Assembly: GCA_951406725.2 (NCBI GenBank)
Contig: OX597821.1
Location: 2,418,001 to 2,482,000, forward strand
Origin: Octopus vulgaris
Taxonomy: Eukaryota
Length of the DNA: 64,000 nucleotides
Direction: 5' to 3'
The notes under the pieces are model-generated. The model saw only the letters and a program-made list of their open reading frames with translations, had not been told where the DNA came from and ran no database searches. This document shows, piece by piece, positions 623 through 58,450 of the stretch; position 1 is the stretch's first letter; the number at the start of each line of letters is the position of its first letter. The position numbers and the translations under genes are program-made.

Positions 623-830
623 TGACCCCTCTGTCCGGCATTCGCCATGATAGATCGCTAGCCACTCCACATTCTTTATTTTCTGTCCTTGTTTCTTTCT
701 GTGTTCCTTTCTGTTGAAGAGCATAGGCTCGAAACGTTAAAGACGTTTTCACTTCCCGAGCGTTGAACTAATACATCTGCTTGTTGTCTACACCACCTGT
801 CTTCGTCTTTTGTTTTTCTGTGAACTTTCC
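623..830 (+). mobile_element. Microsatellite-embedded short element with variant HHR-like motif (CTGTTGA core) at 706-743
   Basis: CTTT-CTGTTGA-A-GAGC-ATAG-GCTC-GAAA-CG-TT-AAAG. Related copies at 37327-37570, 32509-32590 (partial), 15616-15830 and 58225-58450. Confidence 0.65.
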
Positions 831-1397
831 TACACACACACACACACACACACACACACACACACACACTCACATGTATATACATATATTTCTGAAAAAC
901 AAGAACAAAAATGTGCTACTTTCTTAAAATTGGGTACATTTTTATTTTCCTTTTACATGTTTCGGTTTTTGAAAAACCTTATCAAGAATATGTACTAAAA
1001 TGGGATAAGTAAAGAGAAAAGATCTATTAAAAAAATTAAATTAAAATTCAGATAAACTTTCATAGTTTACTTTCCTTTTTCCTGCAAGAAATACATGATA
1101 ATATCCTTTGGTTCTGGTAGAATGACAAGATCAACTGACTGTGACCGCAAATTACTACAATTGTCTGTTTTTGTAAATCGAATAGTGTGGTCAACACTTG
1201 TTTTCCTAGGTCTGGCTGTAGCGGTTGAATAACTAGCAGCAGTAATAATAATAGTCGTCGTGGTGAAGTTGTCCCCCCCCTGGGGTTTTAATAGAAATCG
1301 GTTGCTTCGACCTCTTGTCATTATTTCTTACACACTCACTGAAGCACACACACACACACATACATATATATAAGCATTTGTACCCACACACATATTT

Positions 1398-1610
1398 CGG
1401 CGAGCTGGCTGAAGAGTTAGCACGCCGGGTGAAATGCTTAACAATATTTCGCCTATTTTTACGTTCTGTGTTCAACTACCGCCGAGGTCGTCTTTGCCTT
1501 TCTTCCTTTCAGAGACAATAAATTAAGTACCAGTTGCGTACTGTCAGCGATCTGATGGATTGGGCCCCTCCCCAAAACTTCGGGCTTTATGCCTTGATTA
1601 AAAAAGAACA
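1398..1610 (+). mobile_element. SINE family B
   Basis: GGCGAGCTGGC...TTAGCACGCCGGGTGAAATGC...CCGCCGAGGTCGTCTTTGCCTT. Confidence 0.8.
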
Positions 1611-1764
1611 TTTTACCGTGTTGAAACATATGGATAGTAAGAGTTCAATTAGTAGATATTTAGATCTATCTATCTGTCTATCTGTCTGTCTGCCTGTCTA
1701 TCCATCTATACACACACATATAGATACCTCCTGAATTATAACTGTATCATACATTTTCATAATA

Positions 1765-1925
1765 GTGTGCTTTCTGTTAAGTAGCTTGCTTACGAACCAC
1801 ATGGTTTCACGTTCAGTCCTACTGTGTGGCACCTTGGGAAAGTGTCTTCTACCATAGCCTCAGGCCGACCAAAGCCTTCTGAGTGAATTTGGTAAACGGA
1901 AACTGAAAGAAGCACGTCGTATATA
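1765..1925 (+). mobile_element. SINE family A, 5' half
   Basis: GTTAAGTAGCTTGCTTACGAACCACATGGTTTCACGTTCAGTCC...GGAAACTGAAAGAAGC. Confidence 0.8.
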
Positions 1926-1949
1926 TGTATATATATATATATATATATA

Positions 1950-2357
1950 CTCTTTACTCTTTTACTTGTTTCAGTCATTTGACTGCGGCCATGCTGGAGC
2001 ACCGCCTTTAATCGAGCAACTCGACCCCGGGACTTATTCTTTTTTTTTAAGCCCAGTACTTATTATATCGGTCTCTTTTGCCGAACCACTAAGTAACGGG
2101 GACATAAACACACCAGCATCGGCTGTGAAGCAATGCTAGGGAGACAAACACAGACACAAAAACACACACACGCATACATATATATACATATATACGACGG
2201 GCTTCTTTCAGTTTCCGTCTACCAAATCCATTCACAAGGCATTGGTCGGCCCGAGGCTATAGAAGAAGACACTTGCCCAAGATGCCACGCAGTGGGACAG
2301 AACCCGGAACCATGTGGTTGATAAGCAAGCTACTTACCACAAAGCACTCCTGCGCCT
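1950..2357 (-). mobile_element. tRNA-derived SINE, family A (near full length)
   Basis: Head GGCGCAGGAGTG...TGGTAAGTAGCTTGCTTA...GGTTCCGGGTTC has Pol III A/B-box-like motifs, then an internal (TA/CA)n and a (TAAAAGAG)n-like tail. Many copies in the window. Confidence 0.85.
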
Positions 2358-54718: not shown

Positions 54719-56412
54719 TAGATACAGTAATACGACTGACTTGGAACTCCGAAAGGATTCGAGATTCATTTATATATGATAGTGGTATCAAATCTTGGCA
54801 CAAGGCCGGCAATTATGGGGGAGGTTGTATGTAGATTACCTAGACCCCACTGCTCAACTGCTACTCGCTTTATCGACCCCGAAACGATGAGAGGCATAGT
54901 CAGCTTCAGTTCAATTTTACATCCGAAGAATGACGTGACGCCAACATTTTTCCCAGCATGCTAACGATTTTCCTTTGCGAGAATAGTTTTTCTAGCTCTA
55001 CGTCACTCATATCCATGAAATTCATTTACTTCTGCCGGACAGGATATAATAGAATAATTAGTAAAAAATCGTTTTAGAAAAAAATGTATCATTTATGACG
55101 AGAATAATATAGCGAAATGAAAATTAAAGAAAAAATTGTATCTATTATTTCACTCCTTCCAACTAAAATTCTATTATCCAAAAGCTATTTTCTATTATTC
55201 GTCTATTCTCTATATTTTCTAATAATGATAATATGACAGAGTACACATGAATAGCATTTTCAGTTTAAACAAATTCAGAGAAAAAAATTAAAAAATACGG
55301 ATAACTTAGCATGGTTTATTGGAAAAGAAACGTTTTATTAGTTACATCAGAACACTGTCGATTGGGCTCCGTTGGTTGCACGCAATACATCTAGATAATA
55401 ATTGTGGAATTATGAGAGATAACTTAAGGACACCCTATATTTACCGAGTCGATTGAGCTCAGTCGCTGTTGTGTGGTTCAGACGATGCTTTCGCATCCAC
55501 GTGATTCGAAGTTCAAAACCCTAATGCATGGTCTTTTGGCTGACATACAGCATTATATCATATCAGTAAACGTTTTTTTTTTACTGTGTGAAAGGTTTGG
55601 ATATTCTCCATGAATGGAATACTTGTTATGTACAATGAAACGAATGTCTGGTGGAAACCAGTCTATTAAATCATTCAGAAAATATCGGCTGTATGAAGAT
55701 TACAGAATCCCCTCTATTTTCTTCTACCTCTTTCGAGGCCATGACCTAGCGGTCAGAAACAGCATTCCTTCTCCTCGCATTAATCACAAAAAAATGCTCA
55801 TATTATTTAGTGTAAGGGGACTTATACATCCCTTAATAGAAAAGTCAGTGTCAATAGCAGGTTATAAATTTTGTGTCCGTCATCTCCCCTCCCAGAAAAA
55901 AATTCCTGTTACTAAAATTGTTTAATGTTACACATTAGTTAAAATACATATTCTATAAATCTATTACATATTAAAATCTATTAAAAATTGTCTACACGGG
56001 CACCAGACCTTGTGGTTTTGAACGCAGAGTGTTCCTGTTTGTATAACTCAAATTCACTAACCGTATTTTATACCGCCATTCTATATGTGTCATATAAAAT
56101 TTTTATGGACGTAAAAACCAGCTGCTCAATTAAATAGCTTTCTATTTAATTCTAGTCTTTCAGCATCTGACAAATTTGTTTTCCGTGACAACCTAGGAAT
56201 AGATAATTTAAGTGTTTACTAAACGTTCTATATATAACAGTCAGTCTTAGCGCATATATCTTACTGTCTTAAATTAGGGAGGGCAAATTGGAAGTTTCAG
56301 CCCTTCGTACGCAGTGTTAGAAAGAATAGAATTTAGAAAATAAAACATATCAGATGAGACAAAATTAAAAATTATAAGTGTAGAAGATTGAATATATATG
56401 GATAAGTTATAG

Positions 56413-56724
56413 GAGCACTCCGTGGTTACGACGACGAGGGTTTCAGCTGATACAATCAACGGAACAGCTTGCTCGTGAAATTAATGTGCAAGTGAATGAG
56501 CAATCCACAGGCACGCGTACTCTTAACATAGTTCGCAAAGAGATTCAGCGTGACAAGGCTGGCCCTTTTGAAATACAGGTACTACTCATTTTTGCCAGTT
56601 GAGTGGACTGGAGGAACGTGAAATAAAATGTCTTGCTCAAGGACACAGCGCGTCGCCGGGAATCGAACTCCCAACCTTGCAATCATGAGCCGAATGCCCT
56701 AACCACAAAGCCACGCGCCCTCAC
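56413..56724 (-). mobile_element. tRNA-derived SINE with 15-bp target-site duplication
   Basis: Head GGCGCGTGGCTTTGTGGTTAGGGC...GGAGTTCGATTCCC. Direct repeat ATGGATAAGTTATAG at 56398-56412 and 56725-56739. Confidence 0.88.
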
Positions 56725-57651
56725 ATGGATAAGTTATAGTTTAGTGCTAACCAAACGATTGCAATGTAATTACAGTGATTGGCAGTATTAAAACATATGT
56801 TCGCTGGATCATCTACATTCTGTTTCATGGCCAATAAAACTGTATTGAGGTAGATAGAGACAAGGTGGAAATGACAGCCCATGATATTTCCAACGTTCCA
56901 AGAATTGTAGATGGTATTAGCATAGCTTGAATGCTTTTAATAATAAATTTAACCAATCTTGGTTAAACCAGGGCTAAAGCTGCAACAGCAGTCTCCATAC
57001 AACTAGGATCTGGGTATCTCAAGAGGAATTTCAATTTATCTTAACCATTGTGTTTCACATAAATACTGATTTATAAGGCGATCCTACTTCCGGAAGGGCT
57101 TTACTACTTTAAATGGGGTTGTTATAAGTCATAGGTGCTATTTTTCACTTCTGAGTAACTAATCCAAATAATTGCCATTGTCAATGCCAATATACAGCCA
57201 AGGAAGGATTATTGTTGTTGCTTTTGTTGCTTAATGATTTTGTCTAGCAGAAATATAATCAACAAAATTATCACAATCATGACGATGAATGTTTTTAAAG
57301 TTTATATCGAAAATATGACGGTTTATGCTTTCAAAGTCGGTAGAGTGCGATACGAAATTTGATGACGGTTTTAGTTAGTTGGGGGATACAGACAGATTGT
57401 TGTACAAAAGGATTTATGTAAGGAGATGCATAAACTTATAATGTTATGTCACGGGTTTCAGGTTATGGCCTTCCTGTTTGAATATTTTCACCATATTTTA
57501 TATAAGTTAAGCTACACAGGAGAAGACAAATGTAAATTGACTTTGGTATGTAAACAATAAAACTATGAAGTATACTAAAGCCTAGATACATAGAAACAAA
57601 TGATGGTGACATGACAATGATAGACATGTACATACTTGTAAAAATATATAT

Positions 57652-57925
57652 ATCACCGTGATCACCGTGACCGACCAGGCTATGAGATGTTGCTACATAT
57701 CGCTGGTTACCATGCGCTTCGCATTCTTTTACCTTCAAATGACGCCACCCCGCTGGCTAAGCGAGCAAGCCAACAGAAGAAAGGGAGAGAGAGAAAGTCG
57801 TGCCGAAAGAGTACAGCAGGGATCGCCACCACCCCTGCCGGAGCCTCGTGGACCTTTAGGTGTTTTCGCACAATAAACACTCACAACAGAGAGTCCGCTG
57901 CCCTAACTACTGGGCTATTGCGCCT
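57652..57925 (-). mobile_element. SINE family C
   Basis: Reverse-complement homologue of 34874-35135. Confidence 0.75.
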
Positions 57926-58224
57926 CCACACACACACACACACACACGCACACACACACACACACACACACACACACACACACACACATATATATATATA
58001 TATATATATATATATATATATACATGTATACACACATACAGACGCACGCATACATACCCACGTATATATATATATTTATATTTGAAATATATAATGCTTT
58101 ACCAAAAGCATTATTTTTATCATTCTACTATATATATATATACATACATACACACACGCGCACACGCATATATGTGTGTGTATGTATCTATGCATGCATG
58201 CATATATGTATGTATATAATATCA

Positions 58225-58450
58225 CGGGTTGCAGGTTATGGCCACCTGTAACCACATGTGGATTATTGGCGATTGCATTCCTCCGTCTTCCTTTACCCTT
58301 GGGCTTTCTTCTGTCACCTGCTTCTGACGAAGAGCTTTGCTCAAAGTATAAAACAGTCTTTCCTTCCTTCTCTGAGCATCTTATTGATACGTTACATGTA
58401 ACACGTCCTCGATGATTTTCTTCTATTTTTCTCTGTTTTTTTTTATACAT
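58225..58450 (+). mobile_element. Related short element with degenerate HHR motif
   Basis: CTTCTGACGAAGAGCTTTGCTCAAAGTATAAAAC...TCTGAGCATC. Similar to 15616-15830 and between microsatellites. Confidence 0.5.

Follow-up and report, generated by a model that had tools for sequence, protein, structure and literature searches.

Introduction

Hammerhead ribozymes (HHRs) in Penelope-like elements (PLEs), the targeting of TA repeats and retrozymes derived from PLEs are already in print. Minimal hammerheads have been described in the pseudo-LTRs of metazoan PLEs (Cervera & de la Pena 2014, PMC4209133). The idea of a non-autonomous hammerhead element has likewise been published for animal non-LTR retrozymes (Cervera & de la Pena 2020, PMC7229834; Li, Clavereau & Pollet 2026, bioRxiv 10.64898/2026.07.22.740005), and the 2026 preprint presents the evidence on the retrozyme life cycle as limited. 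In vitro, the protein of the Anolis PLE Poseidon cuts and extends both strands of AT-rich DNA, using two internal sites of an unprocessed RNA and a priming site that has no homology to the target (Frangieh 2024, PMC11167929).

Here we analyse 64,000 nucleotides of the Octopus vulgaris genome (contig OX597821.1, positions 2,418,001 to 2,482,000; the window), in which a sequence-only reading had listed 13 type I HHR motifs and proposed a guild of small elements, either solo PLE ends or non-autonomous units mobilised in trans. Both alternatives are true, for different families. The explanation that we regard as probable is a mixture of seven ends of autonomous PLEs, two further likely ends, and four protein-free monomers of 351-499 nt, for which a PLE protein likely supplied reverse transcription and insertion in trans. 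Thus the term guild fits four of the 13 sites but not the others.

Results

Hammerhead motifs are conserved at the family level

All 13 sites belong to multi-copy, genome-wide families with the type I HHR layout and a palindromic helix III. At the family level this bears out every cited motif, whereas many of the window copies are non-canonical or damaged. For example, the core reads CUGUUGA in the copies at 706 and 37455 and CCGACGA at 3084, and the copy at 12143 has an additional base within the core. Stem II is damaged at 2741, stem I is nearly absent at 38321, and the 5' strand of stem I is mostly lost at an inversion junction at 36842. In samples of 30 copies per family, the motif is intact in 28 copies of F, 22 of J, 19 of B, 9 of H and 25 of E. 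None of 30 copies of family A contains CUGANGA, and its A' relatives have the canonical CUGACGA (11/30 intact).

Like the HHRs of PMC4209133, the octopus motifs have an extra base after A9, and they lie mostly singly on truncated copies, with opposite-strand pairs close by. Unlike them, octopus cores include CUGUGGA, CCGACGA and an extra-U form, and the basal pair of stem II is C.A or A.C in several families; the youngest family has an A.C mismatch there. The HHRs of B, F, J and H take the minimal rather than the canonical form. Between F and J, three stem II pairs have changed on both sides and the helix III palindrome is retained at a different length. The G10.1-C11.1 pair is missing in 14 of 21 distinct F/J rows; this, together with the non-canonical core of family A, counts against the explanation preferred here.

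Could the motifs have arisen by chance, given DNA so rich in AT and microsatellites? With a first descriptor the window yields 4 matches scoring at least 8, whereas 12 local dinucleotide shuffles yield 0.5 on average. A looser descriptor, drawn up once the families were known, gave 7 matches against a mean of 0.8 and a maximum of 3 in 40 shuffles. Five of these seven are sites of the sequence-only reading; the other two, at 311 and 8366, lie outside them and speak for chance, which is expected to yield about 0.8 matches. The Rfam scan points the same way, with no hammerhead family among the matches listed (150 of 329), which were only miRNA-like and microsatellite-driven. Enrichment over shuffles, intact motifs in most sampled copies of F, J, B and E, and the compensatory changes between F and J leave chance with next to no credence, and family-level conservation has already effectively refuted it. 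The suggested density of one element per 5-6 kb holds in the window (one per 5 kb) but not elsewhere (about one per 13 kb, with 26 matches over 339 kb of flanking sequence).

Seven sites are ends of autonomous PLEs

The sites at 706, 3084, 3319, 12143, 37455, 37994 and 38321 are ends of autonomous PLEs: when followed beyond the motif, families A, C, D, E and G run into GIY-YIG/RT ORFs and are truncated ends.

Four of these sites are Hydra-clade ends, the clade being assigned by the protein motifs given by Craig et al. (2021, PMC8557442). Family D (3271-5369, minus strand) is a 5'-truncated young element with an ORF piece at 4000-5307, an HHR with canonical core at 3326-3405 and an inverted arm at 5313-5369; over 2,039 bp it is 99% identical to a full unit of 3,624 bp elsewhere that encodes 899 aa. 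Family G (38130-41802, minus strand), also 5'-truncated, has an ORF piece at 40498-41385, an HHR with a long branched stem II at 38321-38424 and an inverted arm at 41333-41802; a copy elsewhere (L181) has a 960-aa ORF and 883-bp pseudo-LTRs. These two window elements, 2.1-kb and 3.7-kb fragments with ORFs, do not fit the description of 140-460-bp non-coding units. Family C is represented by a short pseudo-LTR copy (2984-3200, minus strand; sense arm 2984-3130 with the HHR, inverted arm 3132-3199) and by an older copy (37847-38061, minus strand) with an inverted arm and a degenerate HHR near 37994, 72-74% identical to the copy at 2988-3197.

As in the Hydra clade of PMC8557442, C, D and G have a C-terminal GIY-YIG-type endonuclease, CxxC and CxH flanking the conserved E/N, an HHR in the pseudo-LTR, (TA)n insertion and a tail at one end. 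The CxCX5C linker is present in C and G and degenerate in D, and the full ORFs of D and G contain DKT, RWR/RWL as the RWK-like motif, and YRDD. In contrast to the elements of less than 3 kb described there, the D and G units measure 3.6 and 5.6 kb, with long low-complexity linkers and 3' UTRs.

The sites at 706, 37455 and 12143 are Neptune/Nematis-type ends, and the protein motifs would fit Neptune and Nematis alike. In family A (624-832, plus strand; HHR-like motif 707-742) an endonuclease lies upstream in 8 of 30 loci, and one locus (L048) encodes an RT with DKG. A variant (37327-37563, minus strand; motif 37457-37490) has a 92%-identical copy (L329) 614 bp behind an endonuclease. Family E (12068-12203, minus strand; HHR 12143-12186) is a 3' end with an internal deletion; its endonuclease lies about 210 bp upstream in one of 30 loci (L143) and matches the Pfam GIY-YIG domain (E 9.9e-8). 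The CX2-5CxxC linker precedes the GIY-YIG domain in A (L189) and E, both known from broken copies only. Pfam did not recognise G, the Hydra-type ORF fragments of the window or the A fragments.

Two further sites resemble these ends and are likely PLE ends themselves: an A' copy, sister of A (15615-15830, minus strand; degenerate HHR near 15715), and a degenerate A/A'-like end at 58219-58450 (plus strand; HHR remnant near 58324). One of 30 A' loci has a weak endonuclease match about 740 bp upstream, its continuity with the A' end being putative, and no head-to-tail junction was seen in the 150 nt inspected upstream.

Four sites belong to ORF-less monomers

The sites at 2741, 10102, 21129 and 36842 are ORF-less permuted monomers that run head-to-tail into themselves. 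Family B (2518-2952, minus strand; period 351 nt) has a sense arm at 2826-2518, an HHR at 2741-2781 and an inverted arm at 2790-2952. Family H (9978-10364, plus strand; about 355 nt) is old, with a degenerate HHR near 10102 and an inverted arm at 9978-10053. Family F (36770-37137, plus strand; 499 nt) is young, with a sense arm at 36840-37137, an HHR core from 36842 and an inverted arm at 36770-36841, and family J (21125-21328, plus strand; about 492 nt; degenerate HHR near 21129) is its older, 70% identical sister. GC content is 29-40%, the longest ATG ORF in the four monomers is 23-79 aa, and none contains a tRNA gene. F has 498 exact 29-mer matches (control 0); its copies are partial tandems of up to 2.4 units, and no long array occurs among the first 100 matches listed. 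Assembled contigs of four sequencing runs cover parts of F and are uninformative on strand, ends and level.

These properties resemble non-LTR retrozymes as described in PMC7229834 and the 2026 preprint: ORF-less, low-GC monomers of a few hundred nucleotides with type I HHRs in head-to-tail order, occurring also as dispersed monomers, for which mobilisation by PLEs has been proposed. Unlike those, the octopus families, known here from genomic copies alone, occur scattered in (TA)n as 0.1- to 2.4-mers that have inverted arms and do not form arrays, their HHRs are of the minimal PLE type, and the PLE insertion signature is measured directly. Chlamys elements such as MRC1 (PMC8557442) also derive from PLEs, are non-autonomous and have pseudo-LTRs and insertions in head-to-tail order, but are described as resembling autonomous 3' ends and as mostly lacking HHRs, whereas no homologous autonomous partner was found for the octopus families. 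Homology of F, J, B and H to the D/G pseudo-LTRs is not above chance, and F and B have none to the other autonomous loci tested.

No PLE ORF is consistently linked to B, F, J or H in the sampled loci; therefore, given their head-to-tail continuation, real non-autonomous elements exist. Because locus searches covered the best 40 candidates or the first 100 matches, they may have missed a parent with an ORF that is rare. Are all families then truncated PLE ends? If so, the head-to-tail units would be pseudo-LTRs of a parent outside the sample, shortened by deletion or duplicated locally, and would not propagate themselves. The truncated-end account holds for A, C, D, E and G, and it is favoured by C and E, which both looked ORF-less until a second search or one rare long copy revealed the ORF; one E locus even has a local tandem of a 67-nt HHR unit. 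In C, 14 of 30 long copies have the endonuclease about 1.2 kb upstream, with only the C-terminal part of the protein seen. Of 70 positionally chosen copies, 63 stop within 60 nt upstream of the predicted cleavage site, including 25 that stop immediately 5' of the HHR. An independent non-autonomous lineage inside C, hinted at by HHR variants, was discarded: the long copies share the HHR variant. Against extending this account to the ORF-less families, the head-to-tail junction of F recurs in dozens of independent insertions and is kept in J, and none of 73 positionally chosen F loci leaves the monomer or runs into a common ORF, as opposed to 7 of 70 C loci reaching well upstream. As an account of all families it is unlikely.

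Insertion arms mostly end at one of two fixed sites

In the 73 positional F loci, 106 of 119 segments end at either of two sites, and (TA)4 flanks 65 and 66 of the 73 ends. Among 34 two-armed loci, 33 have one arm per site and one has three arms; pairs using the same site only do not occur (chance about 1e-10). The autonomous families behave alike, with one site per arm in 9/9 two-armed insertions of G and 8/8 of D, and in C the second site is the end of 19/22 inverted arms. B, J and H show permutation and two ends as in F, with mixed to same-site arms of 10:2, 4:0 and 4:1 (excluding 9, 3 and 2 unclassified, respectively). Thus two fixed outer ends per family beside (TA)n, with one end per arm, are observed in autonomous and ORF-less families. 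Since all 33 simple two-armed F insertions follow the rule of D and G, they give direct genomic support for trans mobilisation by a PLE protein. Also in its favour, the arms of one F insertion differ by 1.1% versus 1.9% between loci (lower in 19/26). That earlier proposal gains a common insertion signature, but not an autonomous partner matched by sequence.

In the window, (TA)4 lies within 25 nt of at least one end in 12 of 13 elements against 7% of random positions, with element boundaries placed by eye and partly at TA runs. Ends at TA are frequent in two SINE-like families as well (147/205 and 58/173 ends), so TA adjacency is not PLE-specific; this counts against our explanation and, like the unmatched PLE partner, favours transport by a different retroelement, such as the LINEs that move SINEs, or spread at the DNA level, with the hammerheads as passengers. 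LINEs prime at the RNA 3' end. Such priming would not be expected to give one arm from each of two fixed internal sites, as in the autonomous PLEs of this genome, and no tRNA gene was found in the monomers. We judge transport of this kind very unlikely.

It is conceivable, if doubtful, that the ORF-less monomers are viroid-like circular RNAs, cleaved and ligated by the hammerhead and copied by rolling reverse transcription by a PLE protein into longer-than-unit arms; this reading refines rather than contradicts trans mobilisation. In F, 24 of 106 arms exceed one monomer (maximum 1,213 nt), and the predicted cleavage site is crossed once in 58 arms and twice in 9. Folded as circles, the monomers are more stable than shuffles (z -3.8 to -10.2; 25 shuffles), and circles have been demonstrated for coral, mussel and axolotl retrozymes (PMC7229834). 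Yet tandem transcripts of dimeric genomic copies fit the same data, and the divergence of tandem copies in one arm (1.2%) is like that of separate arms and so does not tell circle from tandem. The A.C mismatch of the youngest family also weighs against circles. Furthermore, ends at the predicted cleavage site are not in excess in the positional F sample (1 against 2.3 expected), nor significantly so in the next 20 nt (9 against 5.8, p 0.13). An end lies near this site in 1/30 copies of B and within 1 nt of it in 3/70 of C. A cleavage footprint in 5 of 29 score-ranked F loci (inner end at 251-257, site 253|254) did not recur in the positional sample and was set aside.

Discussion

Under trans mobilisation by a PLE protein, this protein, probably a dimer of Hydra or Neptune type, would nick both strands of a TA repeat and bind two RNA sites about 50-175 nt apart; each target strand would prime one cDNA, and the two cDNAs would be joined at their far ends. 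The ORF-less elements may retain only the two cis sites and the hammerhead, copied from longer-than-unit RNA, be it tandem transcript or circle. Short C copies, most of which stop close to the predicted cleavage site, would result when priming takes place close to the 5' end of an RNA that starts in the pseudo-LTR. Most of the inserted RNA would be uncleaved, and hammerhead activity is a prediction.

This scheme agrees with Poseidon (PMC11167929) and with the PLE 'tail' (Arkhipova et al. 2013, PMC3846280): two internal priming sites define the tail, both target strands are cut and extended, the RNA is uncleaved, and the tail sits on one inverted pseudo-LTR. In contrast to the tails of 30-40 nt described there, octopus tails measure about 54-175 nt, and the one-site-per-arm rule has been counted. 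Two points count against our scheme: insertion ends show short TA-like microhomology where Poseidon showed no homology of priming site and target, and Arkhipova et al. (PMC3846280) read head-to-head inversions as self-priming on an antisense template.

A bolder version, which we hold only tentatively, is that F may be a living circular RNA that parasitises a Hydra-clade PLE in the manner of a viroid: its hammerhead would cut and close it, and a dimeric PLE enzyme would prime both TA-repeat strands from two fixed positions on this RNA. PLE tails and head-to-head inversions would then find their general explanation in the one-site-per-arm rule, and one genome would harbour four such unrelated or distantly related parasites.

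A literature search over the text of mainly open-access papers returned no report on hammerhead elements in cephalopods and no counted one-site-per-arm rule, and the main text of a 2026 octopus repeat annotation does not contain 'hammerhead', 'ribozyme' or 'retrozyme'. The dependence of retrozymes on PLEs has so far been proposed from co-occurrence and sequence likeness. In the octopus, ORF-less families carry insertion scars that match the scars of young autonomous PLEs in the same genome. With its two predicted priming sites, the young 499-nt family offers a minimal cis element, and intact ORFs of 899 and 960 aa provide two candidate enzymes. An existing in vitro assay could thus directly test trans mobilisation, how PLE inversions arise and what the hammerhead does.

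Hammerhead motifs and their families

The type I hammerhead motifs that a sequence-only reading cited at 13 sites in the window (G000:C8:2418001-2482000 within the 2.8-Gb assembly; about 24% simple repeat) are real, and, as it expected, they exceed the shuffled background. A first descriptor gave five matches, four of them at the cited sites, and at a score of at least 8 it gave four, where 12 shuffles averaged 0.5; a looser descriptor, composed once the families were known, gave seven, five of them at cited sites, where 40 shuffles averaged 0.8. No hammerhead was among the 150 Rfam matches listed of 329 in a scan of the window. 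Family-level comparison is a stronger test than descriptor counts. For this, 11 sites were queries or near copies of a query, 37994 was placed by self-alignment and 58324 was left out.

DNA searches returned 897-3,074 first-look candidates per hammerhead-end query, figures that are not copy numbers. Per 30 sampled copies, the hammerhead is intact in 28 for family F (36842), 25 for E (12143), 22 for J (21129), 19 for B (2741), 11 for A' (15715), nine for H (10102) and none for A (706). Helix III is palindromic or near-palindromic in sequence, at 4-12 nt, in all families. Between F and J, both sides of stem II are altered in three pairs, with one event per pair, and the closing G10.1-C11.1 pair is absent in 14 of 21 distinct F/J rows. 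At that position B, E and F (2741, 12143, 36842) have a C.A or A.C mismatch, and J subfamilies have G-C, G.U or U.U.

Families that end autonomous elements

The units had been read as either solo ends of Penelope-like elements (PLEs) or non-autonomous elements, and both occur: A, C, D, E and G are ORF-linked, F, B, J and H are ORF-less, and the window sites are mostly ordinary PLE debris plus these four ORF-less families. A GIY-YIG-type endonuclease lies upstream of A in 8 of 30 loci, with a reverse transcriptase bearing DKG in locus L048, and the variant of A at 37455 has a 92%-identical copy 614 bp behind an endonuclease. The ORF link of E is seen in one locus of 30, L143, where an endonuclease matching Pfam GIY-YIG is encoded about 210 bp upstream. 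For C (3084, 37994), 14 of 30 loci have an endonuclease at a distance of about 1.2 kb on the upstream side, a link obtained in a second search with the furthest shared upstream segment as query. The window copy of D (3319) shares 99% identity with a tandemly repeated 3,624-bp unit bearing an 899-aa ORF, and at least 40 copies of this element end are 100% identical. Outside the window, G (38321) has loci with complete ORFs, 955-960 aa long, and with pseudo-LTRs (terminal repeats) of 883 bp. A and E carry the Neptune/Nematis linker, and C, D and G carry Hydra-clade motifs as described in Craig 2021. No clear link to an ORF and no head-to-tail junction were found in sampled loci of A'.

Two arrays lie outside the window. 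At G000:C1:119514310-119525381 (L571, L572) the 3,624-bp D unit is repeated four times in tandem with intact ORFs, and probably forms an active source locus. At L187:1626-2369 (G000:C14, about 17562626-17563369), one two-armed insertion holds about 11 head-to-tail 67-nt E units, each spanning the usual 5' end of the family to just beyond the hammerhead; a nascent mini-retrozyme or repeated template jumping is possible.

An exact search with a 25-mer of family C gives 6,908 matches, the first of which supplied a sample of 70 loci. In 63 of them the sense arm reaches at most 60 nt past the cleavage site on the upstream side, and in seven it goes beyond that; 25 of the 63 end 33-58 nt from the site, immediately 5' of the hammerhead. 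An RNA 5' end would lie there, and priming may occur close to the start of the pseudo-LTR transcript, which would account for the many short copies. Long copies have a hammerhead variant identical to that of short copies. In G, ends cluster more loosely, at about 430-470 nt upstream of the core.

ORF-less families

Upstream of the hammerhead in F, B, J and H lies the element's own 3' end, with head-to-tail periods of 499, 351, about 492 and about 355 nt, respectively. J is 70% identical to F over the whole unit, including the junction. The longest ATG ORFs in the four monomers are 23-79 aa, and no tRNA gene was found in them. PLE ORFs lie within 3 kb upstream of such monomers in only 7 of 550 sampled loci, two of them the window itself, and these seven are mixed in type and distance. 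For F, with 498 matches to an exact 29-mer, no exit from the monomer was found in any of the 73 positional loci (all those among the first 100 matches). Of the 30 sense arms in B loci L220-L249, 19 break off no more than 40 nt before the hammerhead core, where the 5' strand of a long hairpin lies.

Insertion anatomy

These 73 loci contain 119 F segments, of which 106 have their outward end at either of two positions in the monomer, separated by about 105 nt and used 49 and 57 times; the 13 with other outward ends were excluded. Twenty-four arms are longer than one monomer, and the predicted cleavage site, after monomer position 253, is crossed by 67 arms, twice in nine. Among 34 two-armed loci, 33 have one arm per site and the remaining one is three-armed; half would be expected under independence (chance about 1e-10). 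The autonomous families follow the same rule, in 9/9 insertions for G and 8/8 for D; in C, whose sense arms were chosen for ending at the first site, 19 of 22 inverted arms end at the second. The older ORF-less families agree more noisily (mixed-site, same-site and unclassified loci: B, 10, 2 and 9; J, 4, 0 and 3; H, 4, 1 and 2). Divergence between F arms is 1.1% within an insertion versus 1.9% between loci, and is lower within in 19 of 26.

(TA)4 adjoins 65 left and 66 right ends of the 73 F loci. The proposed enrichment of TA flanks held, 12 of 13 window elements having (TA)4 on one or both sides versus a 7% background, but it is not specific to PLEs, as SINE-like families also adjoin (TA)4, one of them at 147 of 205 ends. 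Such copies are plentiful, among them 1395-1559, 1767-1918, 1963-2143 and 27454-27686, families that we take to be SINE-like, and many others. Another TA-flanked family (window 33242-33670 and 29669-29816; L181:8878-9327) resembles the PLE families in its two opposed arms, which end at two sites about 65 nt apart; none of these copies showed a hammerhead.

Elsewhere in the window, 54159-54718 and 62940-63498 are 560-bp copies, 91% identical, with short terminal inverted repeats, presumably a deleted mariner-type DNA transposon. At 30451-31038 (+), a 195-aa open frame resembles by eye a 220-aa frame at L186:3103-3762; it had no Pfam match and possibly represents the first ORF of some retroelement.

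Cleavage and mechanism

In a score-ranked F sample, inner ends fell at the cleavage site in 5 of 29 loci; the positional sample gave one versus 2.3 expected, and an end excess was rejected. No cleavage-site peak was found in sampled B and C copies. This fits Frangieh 2024 (PMC11167929), in which unprocessed RNA is the main PLE substrate and the hammerhead requires protein. The same paper describes both strands being cut and extended from two internal RNA sites by a PLE protein predicted to be dimeric.

Directly observed here are the links to ORFs, the permuted monomers lacking them, a pair of fixed ends, the use of one end by each arm, and TA as the target. Nicked strands of a palindromic TA repeat could each prime at a different RNA site, for F at predicted monomer positions ~397-404 and ~499+8; the far ends of the two cDNAs would then be joined, and an ORF-less RNA would contribute cis sites only. 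In the partner comparison, F, J, B and H had no homology to the pseudo-LTRs of D or G. Arm identities fit either a circle or a tandem transcript as the F template.

Minimal hammerheads on truncated PLEs are already in print, as are PLE targeting of TA with one-sided tails and retrozymes as probable PLE derivatives. Among the papers listed in our literature searches there was no account of these elements in cephalopods, and nowhere a count of the one-site-per-arm rule, though Repbase and supplements may contain them. In structure, the four ORF-less families fit non-LTR retrozymes, and their insertions are of the PLE type.

The abundant family A (window 624-832; loci L031-L060) has the core CUGUGGA, with A6 changed to U, in 23 of 30 copies; its sister A', unlike A, retains CUGACGA. 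The two cores offer a natural comparison on the need for the ribozyme.
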